From Candidatus Poribacteria bacterium (lineage in GTDB: Bacteria; Poribacteria; WGA-4E; WGA-3G): a DNA stretch of 64,000 bases. Of the stretch, positions 10,405 through 53,965 are shown one piece after another; the first letter of the stretch is position 1; each line of letters begins with the position of its first letter. The stretch spans positions 2,906,204-2,970,203 of the forward strand of contig OY282386.1 of the NCBI GenBank assembly GCA_958295945.1, given 5' to 3'. A program made the translations under genes and the position numbers. The notes below the pieces were generated by a model. It was not told the origin of the DNA. It saw only the letters and a list, made by a program, of their open reading frames with translations, and did not search any database.

Positions 10405-12516
10405 ATGAATATGAAAGCAACACTCGCAACCTGCAACTTGAATCAGTGGTCACTTGATTTTGAGGGTAACTGTGAACGTATCATTGAGTCAATTGAACGT
10501 GCGAAAGCAATAGGTGCTCGCTACCGACTCGGTCCTGAACTGGAAATCTCAGGTTATTCTTGTGAAGACCATTTTTTGGAGGAAGACACGTTACGGCATA
10601 GTTGGGAAACGCTTGCACAAATCATAATCGGTGGTCATACTGATGGTATCTTGTGCGACATAGGTATGCCTGTGATGCACAAAAGTGTACGTTATAATTG
10701 CAGAGTATTTGTCTGTGATGGTAAAATACTACTCATCCGTCCCAAAAAGACACTCGCTGCTGAAGGGAACTACAGAGAACCGCGTTGGTTTGCAGCTTGG
10801 CAGAAGGGATGGACAACCGAACCGTATCAGTTACCACCTGAAATCCGTGAAATCATTTCACAGTCGTCAGTGCCGATAGGATGTGCAGTCATCGTGACTA
10901 ATGATACAATCTTAGCTTCTGAGACCTGTGAAGAACTATTCGCGCCGCATTCACCCCATATTGACCTTGCTGCAAACGGTGTTGAAATTATTGCTAATGG
11001 GTCAGGTTCACATCACGAACTACGCAAGCTTGATACGCGTTTATCTCTGATATGCAATGCTACTGATAAATGCGGAGGGATTTACCTATACGCAAATCAA
11101 CAAGGGTGTGATGGAGGTAGACTTTACTTTGATGGATGTGCCTCCATTGCTCAGAATGGACACATTCTTGCACAGGGATCACAATTTTCTATAAGCGATG
11201 TTGAAGTGGTTTCAGCAACTGTTAATCTCTCAGATGTGCGGTCATATCGTGGTTCAAGAATGAGTGGTGCGGTACAGGCAAGTCAAAGTGTTTCAATTCC
11301 ACAAATAAATGTTGATTTTTCGGTGACCGATAGTAAAATACAAAGTGTTACCATACCGAAGGTTGATCCCAACATACATACACCTGAAGAGGAGATCGCA
11401 CTTGGTCCTGCCTGTTGGCTATGGGATTATCTTAGACGATCTGAAGCTGGAGGATATTTTGTGCCACTATCAGGTGGATCGGATAGCGGTGCAGTTGCGA
11501 CTCTTGTCGGGTCTATGTGTCAACTGGTTGCAAAATCAATTTTATCTGATGTACAACATGTAATAAGTGATGTTGAACGATTGCTTGGTAAAGATTGTGT
11601 AAGAACTATCAAGACAAAGTATAAGGACCCTTTTCTTGCTTCACAGCATCTTGCGCATCAACTTCTATATACTTGTTATATGGGAACTGTAAACAGTTCT
11701 CGTGAAACGCAGCAACGTTCAAAGCAGTTGGCAAGTGAGATCGGCAGCTATCATCTAAACATCAATATAGATACGCTTGTAAATGCGCTGCAAAAGTTAT
11801 TCACTGGTATCACTGGTAAAACACCTCAGTTCAAGACTGAAGGTGGCAGCACTGTTGAGAATCAAGCATTACAAAACATACAGGCACGACTGCGGATGGT
11901 CATCAGTTATCTATTTGCACAGACCTTGCCGTGGGTTCGCAATAAGCGTGGCACGCTTCTCGTCTTAGGTACTGGTAATGTTGACGAAGCATTGCGTGGG
12001 TATCTCACAAAATACGATTGCAGCAGTGCAGACATCAATCCGATAGGTAGTATCAGTAAAACGGATCTTCGTAGTTTTCTAAGATGGGCACAGAAGAATC
12101 TCGGGTATCCAAGCCTTGGTGATATATTGGAAGCACCACCGACAGCTGAGCTGGAACCAATTACGGAGACCTATACGCAAACAGATGAAGATGATATGGG
12201 TATGACTTATGCGGAGTTGAGTCGTTTCGGTCAGTTACGGAAAGTGCATCGGTGTGGACCTGTCAGTATGTTTGAAAAACTTGCTCAGGAATGGAATCAT
12301 CTTCCGCCAGACGAAGTGGCAGAAAAGGTGAAAAAGTTCTTCCGGTATTATGCGATTAATCGGCACAAGATGACAACTCTAACCCCTTCATACCATGCAG
12401 AACCGTACTCACCAGAAGATAACCGATTTGACCTTCGTCAGTTTCTATACAACACACGTTGGAGTTGGCAATTTAAGAAGATAGATAGGATGTGCGAGGA
12501 GATGCAAGACGAATGA
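10405..12516 (+). CDS. nadE: Glutamine-dependent NAD(+) synthetase (N-terminal nitrilase/CN-hydrolase domain plus C-terminal NAD synthetase domain), long eukaryote-like form (703 aa)
   Basis: The N-terminal carbon-nitrogen hydrolase region contains ...[13 protein letters not shown].... The PP-loop [13 protein letters not shown] sits in the C-terminal synthetase domain. The length matches the Qns1/NADSYN1-type. Confidence 0.8.
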
Positions 12517-14179: not shown

Positions 14180-14851
14180 ATGCTGAAGATAACAAGACGC
14201 ATACTCATAAGACTCATTTTATGTGCAGTTCTAATCGTTGGATTTGTCGTGTTTGTCCGTGATTTGAACGGAGTGCGACTCCTTGTACTTTCACCCAAAA
14301 TATTGAAATATCGTCCTGTGATACAAGAACATGCTGCTATGCATCAATTGGATTGGCGACTTATTACTGCCCTGATTGTGCAAGAATCTGGGTTTGACGA
14401 GAATGCCGAGAGTCATGCAGGTGCGATGGGTTTGATGCAACTGATGCCAGATACGGCAAAAGAGCTTGGTGTTACTGACCCATACAACGCTAATGAAAGT
14501 ATCGCTGGTGCGACACGTTATTTCCGCAGTTTATACGACCTGTATCCTAACAGTTCACATCCGAATCGTGTTCGTATTGCTTTGGCAAGTTATAATGGAG
14601 GACGTGGACACATCAAGGATGCTCAACAGATTACTGCACACAGACATGATGACCCAAATCAATGGGAGTGTCTCAGCAAAAGTCTTGTCCTGCTTACAGA
14701 AAAAGATAAGGTATTACATAGGAACGTGTGGGAGGCAGGTGTGCCACCGCACGGCTATTTTCAAGGTTATCCTGAGACACTTGACTATGTTGATCGGGTC
14801 ATTCGTTATTATCAAAGGCTGTGTTATTATTCTAAGTTAATTCACAGATAG
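14180..14851 (+). CDS. Lytic transglycosylase (SLT domain)
   Basis: Canonical SLT motifs ESGFDENAES, AMGLMQLMP and YNGG, plus an N-terminal membrane anchor. Confidence 0.8.
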   Translation: MLKITRRILIRLILCAVLIVGFVVFVRDLNGVRLLVLSPKILKYRPVIQEHAAMHQLDWRLITALIVQESGFDENAESHAGAMGLMQLMPDTAKELGVTDPYNANESIAGATRYFRSLYDLYPNSSHPNRVRIALASYNGGRGHIKDAQQITAHRHDDPNQWECLSKSLVLLTEKDKVLHRNVWEAGVPPHGYFQGYPETLDYVDRVIRYYQRLCYYSKLIHR

Positions 14852-39135: not shown

Positions 39136-40812
39136 TCAATTAGAAATGGTATTATATGTATATGTCCTACGAAGAATACTCTTGTGACCTTGATCGTTTT
39201 GCAGGCGATAGATTACGGTGTATATCCCTTGCATTTTTTGAAATGTATTACTATCAAGAAGAGGTGTAAATTCAACATATTTTGAAGTATCAGTTGGTAC
39301 TACTATTTTTTCACTGAAAGGACCGTAACACCTCACACCTAATGGATTGAGCACCTTCCATGTCAGTGTCACATGCTTCGGACGTGGTGGATTGTTGACA
39401 TATACCGTGATTTTATCTCCTAAAGTGTCTTTATCCATATAGAGTGTTCCCAATTTAGACAGCATTTTGTCTGTAAGCGTTATCGGAGGTACATATTCCA
39501 AATACCCGTTTCCAGGTATTGCACGCCATGTTCCACCTGTGGCTATTGCAATCTGTTTGATCGGTAGATAATCTAGTCCAATAACCTCAACACGAACTTG
39601 TTCCTTTTGCAAGGTAGAGATGACTTCATCAAGGCTATATTGTGACTTGCCATCAAAATCAGCATCATGAAAAGCTGCATCACTTGCAAGAATAAAGAAA
39701 CGTTGTGCATTTCGTCTGAATCGCATCTTATTGACAGCATCCATCAACGCATCTAAACCTGCTTCCGACATATCTCCGCCTCTATCAACATCAATCTTGA
39801 ACAACAAATTTTTGAATTTGCCGAAGTCAGTCGTTAACCCATAATTTTTGACTTTATCTGTGAATGTCACCAATCCGTAAGCTGCGTCTCGTTTTTCTCC
39901 CTTGAAGGCATCAAACACAAAGTCAAAATATGCACGAATCCCACGGATATTATCCATCATACTTGCGGTTTCATCAAGCAGAAAGACTATATCAACCTTA
40001 TCTGATGTTGTTGCAGATGTGAGTTGACCAGCAATGTCTTGCATCATCTTGATATAAATCCCACCGACTTTTCTACCACTTGATGTACTACTACCACTAC
40101 TACCACCCCATGTATTCCCCATACCTGCAGCTCGGAATGCATCGCCTCGCTTACTACCATAATGGATCTGTGGTGCACCTGCCTTTGGTGAAATACCACG
40201 CAAAGTGGCACTTACCTCTAAATTGATTGTACCTGTGTCCACACTTGGTGTCCCGATGGTATTTTTTGATGTAGATGTTAGTGTAAACTGGTCTCGATTA
40301 ACTTTGACAGTAGTGTTATGTGTGTGTGGATTTTGTGTTATATTTGCCTGTCGTAATGTGTGAAGATCTTCACCATCGTTTCTTGTATCTTCGTCAGGTT
40401 TATTGACGTTTTCCTGTGTTCGTCTTTCTGCTGTTGCTGCCATTTCTTCAAAACTATCAATATTCAACAGTGCGGTGTTTATATCAACGGTTGGTTTCGT
40501 TGGCGTAGGGGGTTTTTCTACTTCTTCATTAGAATTATCGTTTCTTGTAGGGGTAGGTATCTCCACAACCTCAGGTGGTTTAGGTTCAGTAATGCGTTGA
40601 ATTGGCACAAGTTCTCCAACTATTTCAGGTCTGAAATCTGGTTGTGCTATGTCTGTTGGAGAATACCACCACAGGCAAAACAGAAGAATTATGTGGATTA
40701 ACAGGGAATAGATAAGAAATGGGTGTTTCCGCTTTTTGTTGTTCATTTTTTTAATACCAATACGAAAAGGACTACTATAATCTATCCATATTATGATGGT
40801 GTATAAAGACAT
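39136..40812 (-). CDS. Membrane-anchored von Willebrand factor A (vWA) domain protein
   Basis: N-terminal TM segment (FLIYSLLIHIILLFCLWWY), a Pro/Thr-rich linker, a vWA region with a MIDAS-like DETASM (DxTxS) and a C-terminal beta-rich domain. Probable start at the internal MNNKKRK. Confidence 0.6.
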   Translation of the reverse strand: MSLYTIIIWIDYSSPFRIGIKKMNNKKRKHPFLIYSLLIHIILLFCLWWYSPTDIAQPDFRPEIVGELVPIQRITEPKPPEVVEIPTPTRNDNSNEEVEKPPTPTKPTVDINTALLNIDSFEEMAATAERRTQENVNKPDEDTRNDGEDLHTLRQANITQNPHTHNTTVKVNRDQFTLTSTSKNTIGTPSVDTGTINLEVSATLRGISPKAGAPQIHYGSKRGDAFRAAGMGNTWGGSSGSSTSSGRKVGGIYIKMMQDIAGQLTSATTSDKVDIVFLLDETASMMDNIRGIRAYFDFVFDAFKGEKRDAAYGLVTFTDKVKNYGLTTDFGKFKNLLFKIDVDRGGDMSEAGLDALMDAVNKMRFRRNAQRFFILASDAAFHDADFDGKSQYSLDEVISTLQKEQVRVEVIGLDYLPIKQIAIATGGTWRAIPGNGYLEYVPPITLTDKMLSKLGTLYMDKDTLGDKITVYVNNPPRPKHVTLTWKVLNPLGVRCYGPFSEKIVVPTDTSKYVEFTPLLDSNTFQKMQGIYTVIYRLQNDQGHKSILRRTYTYNTISN

Positions 40813-40877
40813 GCATCCAATATACTAAGAACTTCATCAAGGAGTTCATGAGGAGACTTTTCAATGAATTCAACCTG

Positions 40878-41135
40878 TCAACTATTATAATCTACAGATT
40901 TTATTTGTTCTACCATAACATAACCTGTTAGTGAGGATTGAGACGGGATTTTTACATGAAACGGTACATTTCTGTGGGTATTAGTTAGAGGACATACCAT
41001 AGCAAGTTGAGTCCGTATGTTAAATTGTGTATTACTGACAATCAATGCGGGGCGTCTTCCTTTCTGTTCATATCCTGATTGTGGATCGAATGATAGACGG
41101 ACGAAATCTCCTTTCTCTGGAATATACCTTCGCAT
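40878..41135 (-). CDS. mazF: Type II toxin, MazF/PemK-family mRNA interferase
   Basis: 85 aa; GDFVRLSFDPQSGYEQKGRRPALIVS...AMVCPLT is a canonical PemK/MazF core. Confidence 0.8.
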   Translation of the reverse strand: MRRYIPEKGDFVRLSFDPQSGYEQKGRRPALIVSNTQFNIRTQLAMVCPLTNTHRNVPFHVKIPSQSSLTGYVMVEQIKSVDYNS

Positions 41136-41411
41136 CTACCATACCTCTTTACCAACGGGGTTACCCCACTCTGTTTCCTCTGGTTGATATTCTTCAGGCA
41201 TTTCGGCAAGTAACTCCTGTAAATCAATTCGTTTTCTCGCTATAGTACGAGTTTCAACAATTATCCTACCATTTTGAATTGTTACCTGGACTTCATCCCC
41301 CGCTTTGATTTTTGCTTCGTCCAACATTGTCTTTGTAAAATAGATACTATCACTATTATCAGTTTTTTGTATCTTGGTTACCACAACAATTCTCCTTTTT
41401 TCATTATTCAA
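41136..41411 (-). CDS. mazE: Type II antitoxin, MazE/AbrB-type
   Basis: 91 aa. Directly abuts mazF (stop codon adjacent to the mazF start). SpoVT/AbrB-like AGDEVQVTIQNGRIIVE. Confidence 0.7.
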   Translation of the reverse strand: MNNEKRRIVVVTKIQKTDNSDSIYFTKTMLDEAKIKAGDEVQVTIQNGRIIVETRTIARKRIDLQELLAEMPEEYQPEETEWGNPVGKEVW

Positions 41412-41422
41412 ATATTTTTCAA

Positions 41423-42391
41423 CTATAAATGAAATTCAACTACATCACCATCATATAGGACATCGTTACGACTGACTGGCTGTCCATCGTGCCATTCAGG
41501 TCCCCATATTCGTGCAAGTTTGAATTCCGCAAAATCTTTGTGTAGACCCAGGGCAGCATCAAACACAGTTGCCCCGTTTGGTAAAACAATAGGGTCATCC
41601 CGTTCTACAGATTTTCCCGGTGCTTTCGGATAAACACGAACGATGTCCAATATATCGTATAAACCTTGTAATAGCTCTTCTTTACCCTCTCCTGTCTCAG
41701 CGGAGATTACATAGATAGGCACATCATCACCATAAAACTCAGATAGTATCTCCAATCTATCATTAGCATCTGGTGCATCAATTTGATTCGCAACAACGAT
41801 ATACCCTAACTCATCTCCATCAGCTTCTCCTCTTTGCTCGTTAAAAACGGAAAGAACAATATCTAATTCATCTAAGAGATTATCGTTCGCAAGACTTATT
41901 ACACCTAAACACAAATCAGCGTTCCTGACTAATGTCAGCACTGAAGGAGAGATAAAATCCTGCATTACTGAAGGAGTGTCAATCAGTTGGAATTGTATAT
42001 TCTCATAGGGAAGCATCCCTACAATCGGCATCGTTGTAGTGTATGGTGTCGGTGAGACCTCAGATTTCGCTTTTGTCCAGTTGGCAAGTATCTGTGATTT
42101 ACCACTGTTGGGTGGACCTAACATTACAAGTTGTCCAGCACCCTGTTTCGGTATATGTTCGCTATAACCCTTTTTCCCTGCTCCTTTACCACCTTTGCCT
42201 GATGAACCTTTTTTCAAGACTGCGATTCGCTTACGTAAATCCGATACTACTTTTTCTGTGCCTTTATGTTTTGGAACAATTCGAAGCATTTCCTCTAACA
42301 GACTCAGCCGTTCTTCATCTGATTTTGCTGCTTCATGTTCGTGTTTGAGTTTATAGTAGGTTGGAGGTAGATTTGCTGGCATATTGTTCAC
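41423..42391 (-). CDS. DRG-like (developmentally-regulated GTP-binding protein/Obg-HflX superfamily) GTPase with C-terminal TGS domain; G3/G4 motifs degenerate
   Basis: N-terminal helical region LKHEHEAAKSDEERLSLLEEMLRI...KKGSSGKGGKGAGKKGY, a glycine/lysine-rich linker, G1 GPPNSGKS, and a TGS-like C-terminus ...RIWGPEWHDGQPVSRNDVLYDGDVVEFHL. DTPS replaces DxxG and NQID replaces NKxD. Confidence 0.6.
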   Translation of the reverse strand: MNNMPANLPPTYYKLKHEHEAAKSDEERLSLLEEMLRIVPKHKGTEKVVSDLRKRIAVLKKGSSGKGGKGAGKKGYSEHIPKQGAGQLVMLGPPNSGKSQILANWTKAKSEVSPTPYTTTMPIVGMLPYENIQFQLIDTPSVMQDFISPSVLTLVRNADLCLGVISLANDNLLDELDIVLSVFNEQRGEADGDELGYIVVANQIDAPDANDRLEILSEFYGDDVPIYVISAETGEGKEELLQGLYDILDIVRVYPKAPGKSVERDDPIVLPNGATVFDAALGLHKDFAEFKLARIWGPEWHDGQPVSRNDVLYDGDVVEFHL

Positions 42392-42549
42392 CGAATCTGT
42401 GTATATTTAAAATAACTAAGACACATTACAACACCTACGACATATTACCAAATTTCTATGGTGGTGTCAAGATCATCTCATCTCATAGCAAAGACAAACA
42501 ATTTTGATCTCTCTGTTTACCTGCTGTAAACAAGTCACTCCTCTATGAT

Positions 42550-42771
42550 TCATGGGTTGATGAGTTCGATTGCATATTTTATACAACCTGTCACGAAGAA
42601 GATGACTGCAGCGGCAAAAAGAATAACGATTACAGCTAAAAAATAGCCCAAAAATAAACCATCTATGAGATTAAGGCAACCCTCTTCATCTGTTGAGAAT
42701 AATTTTCCCCAAAAAAAATAACCTAAGCAGATTATAATGAACACTGCCGAACATATAACGTAAACCATCAT
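42550..42771 (-). CDS. Small two-TM membrane protein (73 aa)
   Basis: Two hydrophobic helices (VICSAVFIIICLGYFFW and LGYFLAVIVILFAAAVIFFV). Confidence 0.4.
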   Translation of the reverse strand: MMVYVICSAVFIIICLGYFFWGKLFSTDEEGCLNLIDGLFLGYFLAVIVILFAAAVIFFVTGCIKYAIELINP

Positions 42772-42917
42772 ACATTTCCCATTGATTAGAGTTACGAAAC
42801 AATTTTTATATATTGTTCCAATAGTGTTTTCGTCAATATTGAAATTTCAGTTCTCTGTCTTTCTGCAATTCGTCCAACAATCCACTCACGACATAGATTT
42901 TCAATCACAGAAATACT

Positions 42918-43523
42918 TCATGCCTTTTGCTCCACCATGCTGGAAAGGATGCCGAGGATTTTGTCACACTGTCCAATAGCATAAACTTCCTTATCAATGT
43001 ATAGTTTTTTCCCTTCCAATTTGAGAAATTGCCACATAGTGCCTGTAGTGGCAGTTCCATAAATACAAGGGATGTCATTTCCTTTTTGGGTATTAAAGTG
43101 TTGGGCGGCGAGCATTTCAGCGATACACTGGCCGAAGCCAGAAACAGGATTTTCTCGCTTTGCTTCAACAAGAATGATTATGGGTGCTTCTAAATAAAAT
43201 TGCACAGGTGAGAGACTTACCAGAAAATCACATACGCCGGTCAAACCCTTTTCAACAGCAACACTGAAGTCAATTCCTGAAAAGAAACTAATTCGGTCCT
43301 CAAACTTTTCGCGAAGTTCAACGAGAACATCGGTGACAATTAATTCCGAGCTAGCTTTTTCTGTACCGATTGCGAGGGCTAATGGCACTTTTTTTGCCAA
43401 TGCAGTGGTAAGATGTGCACTCAGTGATACCGGTTCTAATCTGGAAGAAATATCCGCTGCTTCATTCGTTTCTAACTGAAACGCTTTAATTACTTCTTCG
43501 ATGGTAAAATTGCTATACGCCAT
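42918..43523 (-). CDS. PD-(D/E)XK nuclease-fold protein, stand-alone HsdR-N-terminal-like (HSDR_N_2-like) domain; tandem paralog 1 of 3
   Basis: 201 aa; GVCDFLVSLSP...APIIILVEAKREN (D...E-A-K), then GQCIAEM and GTATTGTMWQFLK (TNG..W.F-like). Confidence 0.5.
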   Translation of the reverse strand: MAYSNFTIEEVIKAFQLETNEAADISSRLEPVSLSAHLTTALAKKVPLALAIGTEKASSELIVTDVLVELREKFEDRISFFSGIDFSVAVEKGLTGVCDFLVSLSPVQFYLEAPIIILVEAKRENPVSGFGQCIAEMLAAQHFNTQKGNDIPCIYGTATTGTMWQFLKLEGKKLYIDKEVYAIGQCDKILGILSSMVEQKA

Positions 43524-43655
43524 TGTGTTAGTCCTCCTAAATGGTCATAGAACAAATAATGCTTTAATGTGTCCAATTTATCTATGCAAAATGATTGCCC
43601 GTTGAAATGTGTTCGACAATCCTTTCCAGATTAGATTCTCAGGGGCTGTAATAAT

Positions 43656-44261
43656 CTACGCCTTCTGTTCTACCATACTCGCGAGAATACCGAGGATTTT
43701 GTCACACCCATGAATTGAGTAGAATTCTGTATCAATATGGAGTTTCTGTCCATCTAATTTGAGAAATCGCCAGTCCGCTCCAGTCGTGCTGACCCCGTAG
43801 ATGTATGGGATACTGTTCGCTCTTTCAACATTAAATTGCTGTGCTGCGATCATCTCTGCAACACATTGACCGATGCCTTCTAATAAGTCATCCTTTTTTG
43901 CTTCAACCAAAACGATGATGGGTGCTTCCAAGACAAATGACACAGGTGACAGGCTTATCAGAAAGTCACACACACCAGTTAATCCCTTCTCAGCATCAAC
44001 GTTAAAGTCAATACCCGAAAAGAGGCTAATCTGTCGATCAAAATGTTCCCTCAGTTCCAAGAGCACATCCCCAACAATCATTTCTGATTTTGCTTTTTCT
44101 GTCCCGATAGCAAGCGCGACTGGCACATTGCGTTTCAATTCTGTTTTCAAATGCGCGCTCGGTGCCACAGGTGCTACATCACAAAAGAGGTCCGTGGGAA
44201 CATCTATTTCAAGTTGAAACTCAGTTTTCACGCTATCTAAAGTAAAGCTGCTATAAGACAT
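43656..44261 (-). CDS. PD-(D/E)XK nuclease-fold protein (HSDR_N_2-like); tandem paralog 2 of 3
   Basis: 201 aa; GVCDFLISLSP...APIIVLVEAKKDD, GQCVAEM, GVSTTGADWRFLK. About 60-65% identical to paralog 1. Confidence 0.5.
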   Translation of the reverse strand: MSYSSFTLDSVKTEFQLEIDVPTDLFCDVAPVAPSAHLKTELKRNVPVALAIGTEKAKSEMIVGDVLLELREHFDRQISLFSGIDFNVDAEKGLTGVCDFLISLSPVSFVLEAPIIVLVEAKKDDLLEGIGQCVAEMIAAQQFNVERANSIPYIYGVSTTGADWRFLKLDGQKLHIDTEFYSIHGCDKILGILASMVEQKA

Positions 44262-44289
44262 TATGCAATACCCCTTGTTCTGTAAAGAT

Positions 44290-44919
44290 TCACGCTTTTT
44301 GTTCTACCATACTCACGAGAATGCCGAGAATTTTATCGCACTGACCAATCGAATAGAGTGTTCTATCAATATGGAGTTTTTGTCCTTCCAATTTGAGAAA
44401 CCGCCAATCTGTTCCGGATGTGGTAGCTCCATAGATGCAAGAGAAGTCATTCCCTTTTTCTGCATTGAAACGTTGTGCAGCGAGCATCTCTGCAGCACAT
44501 TGTCCGAAGCCGAGTGTCAGGTTATCTTTCTTTGCCTCAACGAGAATGATGACAGGTGCGTCTAAAAATGAGAGGATAGGAGACAGACTTACCAAAAAAT
44601 CGCAAACACCAGTTAAACCTTTGTCATCATCAACGTTAAAGTCAATACCTGAAAAAAAACTTATGCCACGATCGAATTGCTCACGGAGTTCAAACAGAAC
44701 ATCAGTTACAATCAGTTCTGACCTCGCCTTCTCTGTACCAATTGAGATAGCTAACTGCACCTTTTCTTCTAACTCAGACATGAAACGATCCCGTGGCCTG
44801 ACCACATCTGTTTCAGAAAAGACACCAGCAGATTCTATAATTTCCAGTTCAAATTCTGAACGAACTGTATCTAAAGTGAAATTACTATAAACCACTACAC
44901 AATGCCTCCTTCTTATCAA
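44290..44919 (-). CDS. PD-(D/E)XK nuclease-fold protein (HSDR_N_2-like); tandem paralog 3 of 3 (real start probably near VVVYSNFTL)
   Basis: GVCDFLVSLSP...APVIILVEAKKDN, GQCAAEM, GATTSGTDWRFLK. The N-terminal 9 residues of the ORF as given are probably not translated. Confidence 0.5.
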   Translation of the reverse strand: MIRRRHCVVVYSNFTLDTVRSEFELEIIESAGVFSETDVVRPRDRFMSELEEKVQLAISIGTEKARSELIVTDVLFELREQFDRGISFFSGIDFNVDDDKGLTGVCDFLVSLSPILSFLDAPVIILVEAKKDNLTLGFGQCAAEMLAAQRFNAEKGNDFSCIYGATTSGTDWRFLKLEGQKLHIDRTLYSIGQCDKILGILVSMVEQKA

Positions 44920-45004
44920 TTTTCTCCTAACATTCCTATTATTGTAATGTTAAGTATATCACTTAAAATTCCTGTCGTCATATCAAACTGACAAAGTGAT
45001 AATC

Positions 45005-45790
45005 TCACTTTTCGTCTTGGACAGTGCTAATCTCATCTTCGGATATTTTGTGGACACTCTTTGGATTAAATGTCTGCGTAGTATCAACACGCAACGCCAC
45101 TTCAATTCTTCCACCTGTCAATACAAAAAACTGAATAAGAAAACCACCACCCTGCATCGATTCAACCTGATATTCATCAGTATCAAGATCACCAATCCAT
45201 TCTGGCAGCACATCTTCAAATTTCGGATGTACAATCACATTCTCTGGTAGTGCAACTATTAGCGTTCCGGGTTCATCACCAATTGCATTACCAATGATCT
45301 CTCGTTTTTCTACCATAAATGGGACAACGGTACTAGCATATTCAAAATCATCTCGTGTGTTACGTTCTGGTGGCACAAGTCCCCACGTCAGGTGATGGAT
45401 AAACGGATTGCCATATCCTTGTCCAAGCATGTGTTGCAAAGCCGTTTTGTCAACAGGATGCACAACAGCAACGTAGTCAAACCAACCATCATTCCGTGCG
45501 GGACTCTCCGCTGACAATTGTGCAGAAACATTGATATAGTCGCATCCATCAACAGGAGATGGATAACAGCGTGCATCCCATCCATTTATATATCCGAGTT
45601 GTTTTAAACCATCAGCTATGCAGTGAGGTGGATCACAAAAAATGGCAGCGTGATCCATGTTTGGATAGATCTGGACACCTGCACTCGTAATATGGTCCGC
45701 AACTTCGGTGGCTTCGGTAAAACGCAACGCTGCGTTTTCAATTTGTAAGTAATCTGCAAAATTTGTAGGCAATTTAATCAAGCTTTCCAT
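45005..45790 (-). CDS. Hypothetical protein (261 aa)
   Basis: ORF with good coding appearance. No domain recognised. Confidence 0.45.
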   Translation of the reverse strand: MESLIKLPTNFADYLQIENAALRFTEATEVADHITSAGVQIYPNMDHAAIFCDPPHCIADGLKQLGYINGWDARCYPSPVDGCDYINVSAQLSAESPARNDGWFDYVAVVHPVDKTALQHMLGQGYGNPFIHHLTWGLVPPERNTRDDFEYASTVVPFMVEKREIIGNAIGDEPGTLIVALPENVIVHPKFEDVLPEWIGDLDTDEYQVESMQGGGFLIQFFVLTGGRIEVALRVDTTQTFNPKSVHKISEDEISTVQDEK

Positions 45791-45953
45791 GTGATTCCTC
45801 CGTGGTATTACAAGATGCGATGCAATATCAGTTTAACAAAATTTACGACCATTAGCAAACGTATTTTCGTTGAAAAAAGTATGGAATACTGTTAACATAG
45901 AGACATTCAGATTCTGGAACATCAGAACAGTAGATTGTATCAAACCATGATTA

Positions 45954-46754
45954 TTGAGGGAATTAATGAGAAGAAATACATTTCGTGAATTACTTAATGC
46001 TGATAAACCAACCGTAGGAACACATATCCATACAACTTGGCCATCCATCGTTGAAGCAATTGGACATACAGGATTATATGACTATGTTGAATTTGTTGGG
46101 GAATACGGTCCATTTGACTTACACGATTTAGATAATTTGTGTAGAGCTGCTGAACTCCATAATATTTCAACAATGATTAAAGTTGACCAAGAACCGCGGG
46201 GATTCATTGCACAGCGCGCGATCGGTTCTGGATTCCAGAGTGTGCTTTATGCCGATTGTCAAAACGTTGAAGATGTGAAGGAGTGTGTGAAAATTACGCG
46301 TGCAGATACACCACAAGATGGAGGTAGTTACGGTGTTGCTACGCGCAGGTTCTCATATATGGGATATGGAGGCGGACCAGAATATGTTCAAGCACTACGA
46401 GATGTCGTCGTTGTTATTATGATTGAGAAGAAAGGGACAGTTGACAATCTTGAAGAGGTAATGTCCGTTGAAGGCGTTGACATGATACAATGGGGTGGTT
46501 CGGATTACTCTATGAGTATTGGTAAGGTTGGTCAGCGCGGTTCTTCAGAAATCCAAGAAACGGAACGGAGAGTATTTGAAACCGCATTAAAGATGGGAGT
46601 TCCGCCTCGGGCAGAGATTGGTAGTGCTGATGGCGCAAAACGATTTCTTGATATGGGGGTCCGACACTTCTGTATCGGAACTGATATATCTATTCTCTAT
46701 GGCTGGTGGCGCGAACATGGTGATGGATTACGGAAAGCACTTGAGGGACATTAA
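45954..46754 (+). CDS. HpcH/HpaI-family 2-keto-3-deoxy-acid aldolase
   Basis: 266 aa. N-terminal NTFRELLNADKPTVGTHI..., internal ...IMIEKKGTVDNLEEVMSVEGVDMIQWGGSDYSMSIG... and ...FCIGTDISIL match the HpaI/HpcH/2-keto-3-deoxy-L-rhamnonate aldolase pattern (TIM-barrel). Confidence 0.7.
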   Translation: MRELMRRNTFRELLNADKPTVGTHIHTTWPSIVEAIGHTGLYDYVEFVGEYGPFDLHDLDNLCRAAELHNISTMIKVDQEPRGFIAQRAIGSGFQSVLYADCQNVEDVKECVKITRADTPQDGGSYGVATRRFSYMGYGGGPEYVQALRDVVVVIMIEKKGTVDNLEEVMSVEGVDMIQWGGSDYSMSIGKVGQRGSSEIQETERRVFETALKMGVPPRAEIGSADGAKRFLDMGVRHFCIGTDISILYGWWREHGDGLRKALEGH

Positions 46755-46758
46755 ATCA

Positions 46759-46824
46759 GTTGTCAGTCGTCAGTTATAGAGGATTCTGAACCAACAAAGT
46801 CATCTATAACTGACCGCTGACAAC
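46759..46824. terminator. Long inverted repeat (21-bp arms, 2 mismatches, 24-nt loop) between convergent genes; a bidirectional terminator candidate
   Basis: Arms are gttgtcagtcgtcagttatag (46759-46779) and ctataactgaccgctgacaac (46804-46824). It begins 5 nt after the aldolase stop and ends 7 nt before the creatininase stop. Confidence 0.35.
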
Positions 46825-46830
46825 CAAAAA

Positions 46831-47562
46831 CTATGACAACATCTCTTGCATCTTTCCTGCAACCCAATCAACCGCAACATCAATCATTACCTGTCCACTT
46901 TCTGAAGTAGCGAGTTTTGCCTGATGATGATATTCTCTGTCAGATTTTGCTTGTCCTTCATTGGAAATTGTGAGTTTAGCACTGTCGTAATCAACACCAT
47001 TCCAATCAACGTTTTCTGCAAAAGCAGCAAGTGCAAACGCAGTCTCAAATTCCGCTGCATGTCCTGGACAAATTCCTGACTCCATCTGTTCTTGAACTAA
47101 CTCACCAGAGTATGCTTCCCAGTATGAGTGGAATGCGATATTGATTCCCAATTTTTCTCTGTAACCATCCAATCGTTGATGTACTGGTCCAGCATTCCCA
47201 GCATGTCCATTGACAATTAAAATGTTTTCAACACCATGTCGTCGCATGCTATCTGCAACATCGTATAGGACCTCACCGAACACCTCTGCACGAAGTGTGA
47301 GCGTGCCTTTATGATCCATCCAATGTTCCGAGACACCGATGGCTAAAGGCGTTGTCACTATTACCTGTGGGTATAACTTCTCTGCTGCCAGCTTAGACAC
47401 ATACACAGCACTCTGTGTATCGTGGTACATCGCTAAATGCTCGTTGTGTTGTTCTGTGCTGCCTGTGGGAATAATAGCACCTTTGAGCGTGCCAGCGTCT
47501 ATCGCCTCACGCACATATCGCCTTTGGTTTTCCCACAATAACACTGATTTTATTTGAGACAT
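46831..47562 (-). CDS. Creatininase/creatinine amidohydrolase-family protein
   Basis: IIPTGSTEQHNEHLAMYHDTQ...TPLAIGVSEHW...ILIVNGHAGNAG matches the creatininase-family metal-binding pattern; 243 aa. Confidence 0.7.
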   Translation of the reverse strand: MSQIKSVLLWENQRRYVREAIDAGTLKGAIIPTGSTEQHNEHLAMYHDTQSAVYVSKLAAEKLYPQVIVTTPLAIGVSEHWMDHKGTLTLRAEVFGEVLYDVADSMRRHGVENILIVNGHAGNAGPVHQRLDGYREKLGINIAFHSYWEAYSGELVQEQMESGICPGHAAEFETAFALAAFAENVDWNGVDYDSAKLTISNEGQAKSDREYHHQAKLATSESGQVMIDVAVDWVAGKMQEMLS

Positions 47563-47599: not shown

Positions 47600-47803
47600 T
47601 TAGTTGAATTGTTTAAAATATTCGTCAATTTCATCTCTTAATTCAATACCTGCTTGTTCAAAGGCATCTAAAAGTTCAACGTATGTTCCTTCACCACCGA
47701 TAAAATCCCAAATCGTTTTAGATCTATAGGACTTGAACTTTACGCGTATACAATCCTTAATCTTCTCTTTAATCATCGTTTGCCGTTGTAAATTCATTCT
47801 CAC
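47600..47803 (-). CDS. Small hypothetical protein (67 aa) overlapping the 3' end of the methyltransferase gene by 35 nt
   Basis: ORF only. Charged, helical-looking. Confidence 0.3.
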   Translation of the reverse strand: MRMNLQRQTMIKEKIKDCIRVKFKSYRSKTIWDFIGGEGTYVELLDAFEQAGIELRDEIDEYFKQFN

Positions 47804-49373
47804 TGCCTTTTTCTTTTAAATGAAAAATTGTCTCAGAATAGGCTGATTCGCGATTCTTTTCAGTCCGATTCAGTACAGGTCGCTTATGTTGATTGACAAT
47901 ACTCATCCCCGCCCTTTCAGCAATAGTGGGATACATGTTATATTTGTCATTAGCAACAATAAAGACATCGTAATCGTCCGCCAGAAACCTTTTACAATTC
48001 TTGAATACCGCTGCTACACCATGAATGTAAGATTCTCTCGCTTCACGGCCCTTACCTCGAAACAGAGGACCAATTTCCAACTCATCTAACCGTTTGAAAC
48101 CAAAAAGGTCATAAGCATAGGCATGTTGTTCATGATAATTTATAAGACCTACGTAGGGTGGACTTGTGAAGATTCCTTTTATCCTCTTTGCATGAGTAAA
48201 TTCTTCCAACTGTGGATTTTCACGTTTCAACATTTTAAAGATGTCAATAGTCCGTGAATCACCAGTAATGCAATGCTGACAGGTATCCGATTTTAACTGG
48301 TTAAACTCAATCCATCGTTCTATGCTATCTTTGCAATAACGTTCCCACCATCCTAAAATTGAAAAAAGTGGTTTACAGACCTTTCCATGCTTCCTGCAAT
48401 AGTATGTTGTTGTCATAGGTTCACGTAATGTGCCTAAATCTGCGTGTGTTGTTGCTCGACAGGAACGAATTGTCCTACTTAAAATTAGCATTAGTGCTTC
48501 TTGTACTGCTGCATCTTTTATTCTCTGTATTTTACTATGGACAAGTTCAATTTCTGCTCTTACTCCAGGAAGATACCACTGTTTCATAAATCTGGCAGAA
48601 TCTCTTGACATCTGAATGTCAATTTTGTGATCAGATACAAGTTTGAGGTATGTAGCTAAAAAAGCTGCTTCCTTCTCAGCACCATACTTTTTTTGATCAA
48701 TTTCTCCCGCTCTAACCTGACTTTTAAATGATATTGGAAAGTATTTATTATTGAATGATGACAAAGTCTCTGCCAGTTCTGCTTCAAACTCTCTTATTCC
48801 TAATGTGGATACGTAGTTTCTCAGTTCAGATGTGATTTCCTTGCTTTGTTCATAAAGTTGGATGAAATTGTAATGTCCAAGTTTTGCATTACTGATAAAG
48901 GCATTAAATGCAGAAATATCAATTCCCACAGCATGCATACCAAGTTCGTTTGCTTGTACCAGTGTAGTCCCGCTTCCACAAAATGGATCAAGGACAATAT
49001 CACCTGCTTGAAAGTAGACTTCCTTTTTAAACTCATCAACATGTCCATCTAAGAAATACTCAACTAATTGCGGAATGAATTTGCCCTTATAAGGATGTAG
49101 CCGATGGACATGTTTTGTCGTCTCCGCTTCTTTAATTTTCTCAAAGGACAATGTCCAATTTATGTCGGCACCGAGTTGATTTTTCCACCGTATTTCACGA
49201 TTAGCATGACCGTAATATTTTTTGAGACTATCCATTGGAATCATCTTTGATCCATTTTCAAACACCGTTTCAATGTGTCCATACTGGATAAGATAAGAAA
49301 TATTAGCAGTTGTCACATTTTTCTTCAGGTATTCTGAAGCCCATTGACTGGCTTGTTTGAGAGTCAGAAGCAT
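47769..49373 (-). CDS. DNA (amino-)methyltransferase, N6-adenine or N4-cytosine; orphan (no adjacent restriction endonuclease recognised)
   Basis: AdoMet motif I DPFCGSGTT, preceded by RLHPYKGKFIPQL (the HP..KP..L element). Catalytic motif IV TSPPY sits near the C-terminus. A ~270-aa putative target-recognition region separates motifs I and IV. Confidence 0.75.
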   Translation of the reverse strand: MLLTLKQASQWASEYLKKNVTTANISYLIQYGHIETVFENGSKMIPMDSLKKYYGHANREIRWKNQLGADINWTLSFEKIKEAETTKHVHRLHPYKGKFIPQLVEYFLDGHVDEFKKEVYFQAGDIVLDPFCGSGTTLVQANELGMHAVGIDISAFNAFISNAKLGHYNFIQLYEQSKEITSELRNYVSTLGIREFEAELAETLSSFNNKYFPISFKSQVRAGEIDQKKYGAEKEAAFLATYLKLVSDHKIDIQMSRDSARFMKQWYLPGVRAEIELVHSKIQRIKDAAVQEALMLILSRTIRSCRATTHADLGTLREPMTTTYYCRKHGKVCKPLFSILGWWERYCKDSIERWIEFNQLKSDTCQHCITGDSRTIDIFKMLKRENPQLEEFTHAKRIKGIFTSPPYVGLINYHEQHAYAYDLFGFKRLDELEIGPLFRGKGREARESYIHGVAAVFKNCKRFLADDYDVFIVANDKYNMYPTIAERAGMSIVNQHKRPVLNRTEKNRESAYSETIFHLKEKGSENEFTTANDD

Positions 49374-53232: not shown

Positions 53233-53553
53233 TTATCTTTTGTAAAACGTTACACCTTCAAGATCAATTTGATTTATTATGTCTTGATTGTTTAGATTAT
53301 CGTAAATAGACAAATCAATAGTATAAGGCAGCAATTGATCATCAAGATCACTGGCAATCTTGGAGAGAATCTTGTGCGTTAAGGCATTCCCACCACGAAG
53401 TGTGAGATCTATGTCAGAACCGTTCTTATAATTATCTCTTGCACGAGAACCGTAAAGTATAACTTCTTCTACTTCTGGATACCGATCAAAGACATCGTAT
53501 ATCTTTTGAAGTGATTTCTCAGACAAACCGTATTTCATGTTATAGTTAATCAT
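53233..53553 (-). CDS. Minimal nucleotidyltransferase (MNT/MntA-type), the antitoxin of a HEPN-MNT pair
   Basis: GSRARDNYKNGSDIDL (GS-x9-13-DxD nucleotidyltransferase motif); 106 aa. Overlaps the upstream HEPN gene by 8 nt. Confidence 0.75.
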   Translation of the reverse strand: MINYNMKYGLSEKSLQKIYDVFDRYPEVEEVILYGSRARDNYKNGSDIDLTLRGGNALTHKILSKIASDLDDQLLPYTIDLSIYDNLNNQDIINQIDLEGVTFYKR

Positions 53554-53965
53554 CTTCCATCAGTTGTTGTAATCGGATTAACAATCTCTCAAATTCTGTA
53601 TAGTAATCTTCGCGAATTATCTTTACTACATCGGCTGCAATTTCTTCATCATAAGTATGTGATGTCAATTTCCGTTTTTCTACCATATCCATCCATACTT
53701 CACCGTTTTCAATCAGTCCATTCCTAAAAGCAGCACGTGTTGTATCACGAGAACCAAATAAATTCAATAATCCTTGTGACTCCAGGAAATTCTTCATAGT
53801 TTTCCAGGCCACTTCATGTGTATATTCAAATCCTTGTATTAATCCTTGTGATTCCAAATCAGAAAGTTCACGTTGCTCTGCAAGTTCAACTGCGGATTTT
53901 AAGCGTGCAAATGCTCTTCCAAAACTGATGGCACGTTGAACCCAACGAGTCTCTTTAATATCCAT
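53546..53965 (-). CDS. HEPN-domain protein (HI0074-family nucleotidyltransferase substrate-binding protein, HepT-type toxin)
   Basis: 139 aa with the helical HI0074/HEPN pattern (AFARLKSAVELAEQ...GLIQGFEYTHEVAWKTMKNFL...TRAAFRNGLI). Adjacent to the MNT gene. Confidence 0.65.
   Translation of the reverse strand: MDIKETRWVQRAISFGRAFARLKSAVELAEQRELSDLESQGLIQGFEYTHEVAWKTMKNFLESQGLLNLFGSRDTTRAAFRNGLIENGEVWMDMVEKRKLTSHTYDEEIAADVVKIIREDYYTEFERLLIRLQQLMEDD

Follow-up and report, generated by a model that had tools for sequence, protein, structure and literature searches.

In type I (HsdR) and type IIG (BpuSI, DrdV) restriction enzymes, DNA is cut by an N-terminal domain with the nuclease fold PD-(D/E)XK. 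The same fold occurs in small free-standing proteins, of which the Uma2/DUF820 'putative restriction endonuclease' family is abundant in cyanobacteria. Here, we describe an array of three consecutive genes, pC, pB and pA, on the minus strand of a 64,000-bp stretch of a Candidatus Poribacteria genome (GenBank assembly GCA_958295945.1, contig OY282386.1, positions 2,906,204 to 2,970,203; hereafter the window), each encoding a free-standing PD-(D/E)XK protein. The sequence family to which they belong is already profiled in defence collections under the name 'PD-DExK', as associated with CRISPR, and is without a Pfam or NCBIfam model or an assigned function. The array is an ordinary instance of a Poribacteria-wide expansion of this family, which we regard with high confidence as ancient, lineage-specific and located at a hot spot.

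Compared with the type I (HsdR; 3h1t, 2w00) and type IIG enzymes (BpuSI, 3s1s; DrdV, 7lo5), the window proteins stand alone at 201 amino acids: they have no helicase, methyltransferase or target-recognition domain to which cutting could be coupled, and the helix motif, QxxxY in HsdR, reads Q-C-x-A-E-M. Uma2 proteins are likewise small, free-standing and present in multiple copies in both cyanobacteria and Poribacteria, and they share hot spots and operon gaps with the family described here, sometimes side by side, but the window proteins are not Uma2. The PADLOC accessory family 'PD-DExK' is matched directly by all three proteins, but their genes have no cas gene or CRISPR array nearby, and the members truly embedded in type III CRISPR operons are a branch of their own, with 206-residue proteins that are only 27–29% identical to those of the window and have Glu in place of D99. 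An entry named PD-DExK, exemplified by Marme_0670, stands in a published table of type III accessory genes and may represent a different PD-DExK family (PMC6546367). Our literature search found no paper on the family of the window proteins.

Fold and active site of the window proteins

The three proteins are 63.7–64.2% identical to each other in pairwise comparisons (tblastn E values of 1e-84 to 1e-86) and their genes 67–69% identical at the nucleotide level, and there is no fourth copy of the nuclease within the window. These values agree with an initial annotation made from the DNA letters, which had reported three consecutive genes of ~200 codons, ~60–65% identical and separated by 28–132 bp. 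Each of the motifs it quoted (GVCDFL.SLSP, AP.I.LVEAK, GQC.AEM and T.G..W.FLKL) is present and invariant in all three proteins. Its assignment of the proteins to the HsdR-N-terminal type of PD-(D/E)XK domain holds for the fold, which the structure supports, and for the conserved D...E-x-K...Q residues, and fails for membership of the corresponding Pfam families.

No Pfam family was recovered for any of the three proteins even at E ≤ 10, including HSDR_N (PF04313), HSDR_N_2 (PF13588) and Uma2/DUF820 (PF05685), and NCBIfam gave nothing at the same threshold. Similarly, a PHROGs scan of the three proteins yielded nothing useful, and sequence-profile searches of the PDB with alignments of 3 and of 116 sequences returned chance matches only. 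All three proteins are matched by the PADLOC profile PDLC01472 ('PD_DExK', described as 'CAS-associated'), with E values of 7.6e-48, 8.7e-48 (pB) and 2.8e-47 (pC); the match spans residues 54–199 and profile positions 2–142 of 146, and the profile is without the conserved N-terminal 50 residues. Profile-profile alignment with hhalign placed CDF...VEAK of the family in register with ADY...IEAK of one cyanobacterial HsdR N-terminus, although the match is weak (probability 7.6%). Against a Uma2 protein, hhalign found nothing (probability 0.4%), and a Uma2 protein used as positive control, c61, matched PF05685 with an E value of 3.4e-18; Uma2, which the initial annotation had wanted excluded, can thus be set aside.

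An AlphaFold model of pA based on 143 sequences reached a mean predicted local distance difference test score (pLDDT) of 95.2; a prediction from the 3-sequence alignment (pLDDT 54) was unusable. The model contains the alpha-beta-beta-beta-alpha-beta core of the PD-(D/E)XK superfamily and is structurally equivalent to the N-terminal nuclease domain of HsdR. Its best full-length structural matches are the ribosome-bound RNA-binding proteins mL37 and mL65 (mS30), to which the predicted structure bears a striking resemblance over its full length. Sequence identity to these proteins is 9–11%, and the PDB sequence-profile searches gave no link to them. Both are eukaryotic proteins of ~380 residues from the animal mitoribosome and have been called 'repurposed endonucleases' (PMC8998825). 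The window proteins keep their catalytic residues.

Across 116 diverse representatives of the family, E55, K56, S59, E60, D99, E120, K122, Q132, N144 and W164 are near-invariant. In the model, helix 1 contributes E55 and E60, strand 2 contributes D99, strand 3 provides the E120-x-K122 motif and the helix after it Q132. Together, these residues make up a classic PD-(D/E)XK active site. The full signature (E55/K56/E60/D99/E120/K122/Q132) is intact in pA, pB and pC, and ~90% of the Poribacteria copies keep it: E60, K56 and K122 are present in all 154 full-length copies, D99 in 153, E120 in 143 and Q132 in 142. We consider it nearly certain that the family has the PD-(D/E)XK nuclease fold of the HsdR/type IIG structural class, and the conservation of the catalytic residues makes it probable that pA, pB and pC are active.

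Expansion at a hot spot and cyanobacterial relatives

The family is large. When 1.84 billion representative proteins (clusters at 50% identity) were scanned with HMMER, 2,458 clusters matched at E ≤ 1e-3, of which 378 passed E ≤ 1e-30; the best matches are nearly all ~200 residues long and align end to end. Two family searches of a database at 90% identity gave 4,659–5,844 proteins at E ≤ 0.001, the larger number from a profile search of 5.8 billion proteins. Among the best 120 of these 5,844, the named ones are nearly all from filamentous cyanobacteria (Dolichospermum, Symploca, Sphaerospermopsis, Oscillatoria, Argonema); they are ~50% identical to pA, almost all are called 'hypothetical protein', and precomputed Pfam domains are absent from all of them. 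The nearest named relatives of the window proteins are all from Candidatus Poribacteria, which are sponge symbionts. Additionally, the family occurs on 19 plasmids, which are cyanobacterial and in some cases conjugative. No viral relatives were detected by tblastn against phage genomes, by Foldseek against BFVD (best E value 0.035) or among IMG/VR contigs.

A set of one genome per species contained at least 530 relatives, of which the best 80 are from Poribacteria metagenome-assembled genomes, save a few records titled 'uncultured bacterium'; they provided 79 loci for a survey of Poribacteria (80 sequences with the window). Each locus holds one to eight co-directional copies, with one copy at 37 loci, two at 22, three at 11 and four to eight at 9. 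The spacers between tandem copies have a median of ~22 bp and contain a ribosome-binding site, and only a few per cent of the copies are fragments. Several loci share one chromosome, and the count per assembly reaches seven copies; as no more than the best 80 relatives were considered, this figure is a minimum. The initial annotation had named dozens of copies with no association with defence as the outcome that would speak against it, and the survey goes only halfway towards it: copies per assembly reach at least the count just given, the hot spot is rich in toxin-antitoxin genes, and some cyanobacterial relatives lie in defence operons.

Clustering of the 154 full-length Poribacteria copies at 80% identity resolved 17 recurrent paralog types, whose order varies between genomes; the window array has the composition C-E-A. 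Type E, represented by pB, shows 89–96% identity among copies from many Poribacteria genomes. Synonymous sites have reached saturation between the window paralogs (proportion of synonymous differences, pS, 0.69–0.76), whereas within ortholog types the ratio of nonsynonymous to synonymous substitution rates (dN/dS) is 0.06–0.13. A neighbour-joining tree places all Poribacteria types in one clade, sister to the clade of free-standing cyanobacterial members, with the CRISPR-embedded branch as outgroup. Saturated synonymous sites, low dN/dS within types and a single clade together indicate an old lineage-specific expansion under purifying selection, not a recent diversification. Consequently, the triplicated array is neither unusual, as the initial annotation had proposed, since one to eight copies are the norm in Poribacteria, nor a 'diversifying' module; what the copy numbers, types, selection and phylogeny bear out is its fallback, a simple lineage-specific expansion of paralogs.

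One of the types departs from the rest at the active site. Type F, found at six of the surveyed loci (L010, L011, L014, L016, L017 and L019; for example L011 5943–6563), has Asp or His instead of E55 in all copies, with E120 changed to Lys and Q132 to Ala, and with the loss of these three residues it looks inactive. It lies directly upstream of an intact copy in five of the six cases, a placement that hints at pairing between active and inactive proteins.

The slot occupied by the window array is a syntenic hot spot. Its upstream side, which in the window comprises genes for a glutamine synthetase, a type II methyltransferase, a creatininase, an HpcH aldolase and the conserved protein c1, is common to 22–31 loci, with the glutamine synthetase itself matched in only 6, and in most genomes the slot ends with pyrR-pyrC-carA-carB. 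The content in between varies, with nuclease types mixed with genes for CopG-type antitoxins and PIN or DUF5677 proteins, DUF433/DUF5615, Uma2 and WD40-repeat proteins. We regard the c1 gene as context of the array. Using the closest relative, locus L001, as reference for breakpoints, we found that homology with the window breaks off in the final codons of pC (44299) and returns at 43541, 18 nt before pA; in place of the pB cassette, L001 has 2.3 kb with three genes, two of them for WD40-repeat proteins and the third without a known function. Gain, loss and reordering of copies at the hot spot are thus cassette-like.

Secreted WD40-repeat proteins, some of which resemble trypsin in their C-terminal part, recur in the hot spot (L001 7673–10000; clusters c6 and c34 at many loci). 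Their genes often follow CopG or DUF5677 genes and immediately precede a nuclease copy.

Downstream of the array, the genes named in the initial annotation are all present: an open reading frame (ORF) for a hydrophobic protein of 73 residues, a GTPase containing the MMR_HSR1 and TGS domains, an ORF resembling MazE and an 85-residue PemK/MazF protein. The functional link proposed between these and the array is not supported, because L001 alone has all four genes, the 73-residue membrane ORF among them, after its array, and L026 has just the GTPase; the adjacency is not kept beyond the closest relatives and is probably incidental. We accordingly rejected an operon that would join the array with these genes, and the GTPase has a promoter-like site of its own. 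The suggested defence-island setting is not borne out either. Window genes are mostly metabolic, with an orphaned methyltransferase, mazEF and a HEPN/MNT pair besides, and no Cas family is among the PADLOC matches listed for 51 window ORFs. Elsewhere in Poribacteria, stable single-copy sites precede dprA or follow dnaK, trpA or a gene of the PhyH family, and the neighbours at five or more sites (dnaK, trpA, dprA, PhyH, pyrR) are unrelated housekeeping genes. No partner gene is conserved across sites, and over the 80 loci there is no conserved hsdM, hsdS or helicase neighbour.

Free-standing cyanobacterial copies are single and co-directional with their neighbours, and they sit inside unrelated operons with spacers of tens of bp. 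In Nostocales, a copy lies between the gene for an ATP-binding cassette (ABC) permease (urtC-like) and that for its ATPase; in two cyanobacterial genera, a copy follows mnmA; on an Oscillatoria plasmid, one lies between drmD and the methyltransferase gene of a defence island system associated with restriction-modification (DISARM; L089 7001–7603); and at L096 5408–6621, a Uma2 gene and a family copy together separate hsdM from hsdS. The DISARM locus on the Oscillatoria plasmid also contains XisH/XisI between the methyltransferase gene and drmA (L089 12082–12833).

The sister branch, with 2,013 database matches, has its D99-to-Glu replacement in a 'PEY' motif. Its genes are found in cyanobacterial type III CRISPR effector operons, between RAMP genes, or else beside cas6. 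Examples are L088 12001–13269, L090 8001–8621 and L092 8001–8621, and a tandem pair occurs in Allocoleopsis. On the PADLOC profile, free-standing cyanobacterial members score 176–181 bits and CRISPR-embedded members 154–157 bits; the label 'CRISPR-associated' arises because both branches score alike, and it does not fit the window genes.

Possible roles of the family

We give about an even chance to the reading that the window genes are ancient paralogs of a free-standing, predicted catalytically competent PD-(D/E)XK endonuclease with a role in conflict or defence. Each protein would be an autonomous Mg2+-dependent DNA endonuclease, probably a homo- or hetero-dimer by analogy with the small enzymes of this fold, which are usually dimeric. 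The genes would be transcribed from a weak promoter of their own or by read-through from the upstream gene, and the task of the enzymes in genetic conflict would be to cut DNA that is foreign or aberrant, with no part in the metabolism of the neighbouring genes. Taken by itself, the conflict or defence role is a tentative proposal, drawn from the company that the family keeps (a toxin-antitoxin hot spot, restriction-modification (RM), DISARM and CRISPR operons, and plasmids) and from the variable content of its arrays; three of the cyanobacterial contexts are defence operons.

Several observations weigh against a conflict or defence nuclease. Activity is a prediction for every family member, and no DNA-recognition or modification-reading domain is recognisable beyond the core of ~200 residues, which leaves the sparing of the host chromosome unexplained. 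Most Poribacteria copies lie among housekeeping genes, outside defence islands, and the single-copy types D, G and L are stably syntenic across many genomes, which resembles housekeeping genes more than defence genes with fast turnover. As no relatives were found in phage genomes or viral contigs, there is no signature of an arms race from the virus side. Also, mobile genes of any kind are known to collect in defence loci, and presence in RM, DISARM or CRISPR operons is therefore no proof of a defence role. Quite improbable, in our judgement, is a combinatorial nuclease system in which the paralogs, including the degenerate type F, would form hetero-dimers with distinct specificities as a stand-alone, innate-immunity counterpart of the type III CRISPR nuclease subunit; the family could also be the closest prokaryotic relative of the mL37/mL65 pseudo-dimer and point to the bacterial source of these proteins.

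The main rival is a selfish, homing-like gene, whose nuclease would cut an empty intergenic target so that repair copies the gene in, the array being the product of repeated insertions at one site. Homing would explain co-directional copies in unrelated operon gaps, such as those of the urtC-like/ABC ATPase, drmD/methyltransferase and hsdM/hsdS operons with their short spacers, as well as spread between phyla and onto plasmids, conjugative ones included. It also fits the upstream neighbour being on the same strand in 82 of 95 Poribacteria runs, the patchy occurrence in Cyanobacteria and Poribacteria at ~50% identity, cassette replacement bounded at gene ends, and co-travel with the operon-invading small genes Uma2 and XisH/XisI. 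However, fixed homing genes normally decay, whereas this family is under purifying selection, keeps the same type at the same site across 16 genomes and has few fragments. No flanking repeats or target duplications were found at four cyanobacterial insertion sites, and the rise of synonymous-codon identity at gene ends, a possible signal of gene conversion or recombination, is slight and unconvincing (0.62–0.63, against 0.41–0.61 in other 10-codon windows). The single clade of Poribacteria types gives no sign of ongoing exchange with cyanobacteria, and the family is absent from the viruses searched (phage genomes, IMG/VR); on balance, homing is unlikely. Still less probable are housekeeping enzymes, that is, structure-specific repair or recombination nucleases or RNA-processing nucleases that would divide their substrates among paralogs, with position in the genome being irrelevant. 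The strong purifying selection and ancient duplications, the single-copy types stably beside dnaK, trpA, dprA and mnmA, the normal base composition of the array (GC 0.40, the same as its surroundings and without compositional anomaly) and the ribosomal, RNA-binding nature of mL37 and mL65 all agree with such a role, but it does not predict one to eight interchangeable copies, a family limited to two phyla and carried on plasmids, an array composition that is highly variable even among close relatives, or co-location with toxin-antitoxin, Uma2, RM, DISARM and CRISPR genes.

Three further explanations appear very unlikely. The nuclease could be the toxin of a toxin-antitoxin pair, with the downstream CopG-type gene c5 as antitoxin, lost by the window copies: c5 matches CopG_antitoxin, a nuclease gene precedes an intact c5 in ~10 Poribacteria loci, 3' remnants of c5 follow both pA and pB, and the hot spot is rich in toxin-antitoxin genes. 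A type II system would have a conserved adjacent antitoxin, whereas c5 follows a minority of copies only and is missing at all single-copy sites and at all cyanobacterial sites examined, the latter showing no partner gene; c5 is usually followed by a likely partner of its own (PIN, c74, or DUF5677, c50), and in the window the antitoxin has decayed while the nucleases are intact and under selection, the opposite of what an unneutralised toxin would lead one to expect. Even less credible is that the proteins are catalytically silent, structural or nucleic-acid-binding, repurposed from endonucleases as mL37 and mL65 were; type F with its lost E55, E120 and Q132 offers a precedent, but the signature is complete in all window copies and in most others, and D99, K122 and E60 are near-absolutely conserved. 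Least credible of all, and largely refuted for the window locus, is an accessory nuclease of CRISPR-Cas, as implied by the name of the PADLOC profile, on which both branches score alike, and by the place of the sister branch in type III operons or beside cas6. Neither a tandem nor a CRISPR-like repeat array was found in the window, no Cas family is among the listed matches, the neighbours are housekeeping genes, and the branch that is truly embedded in CRISPR loci is a distant outgroup; CRISPR-like repeats are lacking in 75 of the 80 Poribacteria sequences, with short clusters in the other 5, while the control locus L088 showed three arrays.

For the window itself, the value of this analysis is mostly corrective, as the array is a routine case of a lineage-wide expansion and not a special module with GTPase and mazEF. 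More broadly, the family is large, well folded and evidently selected, but lacks a solved structure as well as a Pfam or NCBIfam model. Knowledge of the substrate would account for the five to ten or more copies retained by sponge symbionts and filamentous cyanobacteria and for the presence of copies inside RM, DISARM and CRISPR operons, and it would show whether type III CRISPR systems receive a DNase from the branch embedded in their operons.

Array layout and minor features of the window

The coordinates of the array, its intergenic elements and other features of the window are collected in Table 1. The ORF of pC as called covers 44290–44919, but the start is more likely a GTG at 44895, 9 nt after AGGAGG, and with this start all three proteins are 201 residues long. 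No minus-strand terminator-like site was found inside the array, and the three genes are therefore predicted to be co-transcribed, probably as one unit. Promoter-like sites are consensus matches only, and their number does not exceed the shuffled expectation. An Rfam scan of 40000–47000 gave only chance matches below threshold. The c5 remnant downstream of pA is a weak match when taken alone (E value 2.8) and is backed by the same sequence at the same position at other loci: it recurs downstream of nuclease copies in L001, L002, L006, L008, L019 and L021.

Table 1 Features of the array and of the surrounding window (positions count from the first nucleotide of the window)
Feature	Position	Strand	Description
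c1	45005–45790	minus	Conserved upstream neighbour, 261 residues, no Pfam match; left border of the syntenic hot spot in 29–31 Poribacteria loci
Promoter-like site	44953–44981	minus	ATGACG-17-TATACT with a TG upstream; lies in the 109 bp that separate pC from the gene before it
pC	44290–44895	minus	First gene of the array; 201 residues, ortholog type C, free-standing PD-(D/E)XK
pC–pB spacer	44262–44289	minus	28 bp; short, as is usual between tandem copies at other loci, each with a ribosome-binding site (AGGAGG)
pB	43656–44261	minus	Second gene; 201 residues, ortholog type E
pB–pA spacer	43524–43655	minus	132 bp; begins with the decayed 3' remnant of a CopG-type antitoxin gene (c5) and ends with the ribosome-binding site of pA
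c5 remnant after pB	~43629–43650	minus	APENLI, within the pB–pA spacer
pA	42918–43523	minus	Third gene; 201 residues, ortholog type A; protein used for the structure model
Second c5 remnant	42867–42902	minus	3' remnant of CopG-type antitoxin gene just downstream of pA; ENLCREWIVGRI, compared with ENLIREWVLEHI in c5
MazF/PemK	40878–41135	minus	85 residues, profile positions 1–82 of 109
67-residue ORF	47600–47803	minus	Match to the TdeIII restriction endonuclease profile limited to its final 23 positions
Type II methyltransferase	47769–49373	minus	Intact, 534 residues; PADLOC MTase_II, E value 2e-223
MNT-HEPN module	53233–53553 and 53546–53965	minus	Overlapping genes; minimal nucleotidyltransferase (Polbeta/NTP_transf_2) and HEPN-type protein (NTase_sub_bind)

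The methyltransferase and the 67-residue ORF beside it look like an orphaned methyltransferase with a decayed restriction gene, and the same fragments occur in other Poribacteria. MazF is short at its C-terminus and possibly truncated, with the same form in L001, and the MNT-HEPN pair is a toxin-antitoxin module that lies among metabolic genes. Finally, short palindromic repeat clusters with TTTCGTAGGGAC lie downstream of the array in L005 (~11330–11400 and 14413–14747), and these are REP-like (resembling repetitive extragenic palindromes) rather than CRISPR-like.

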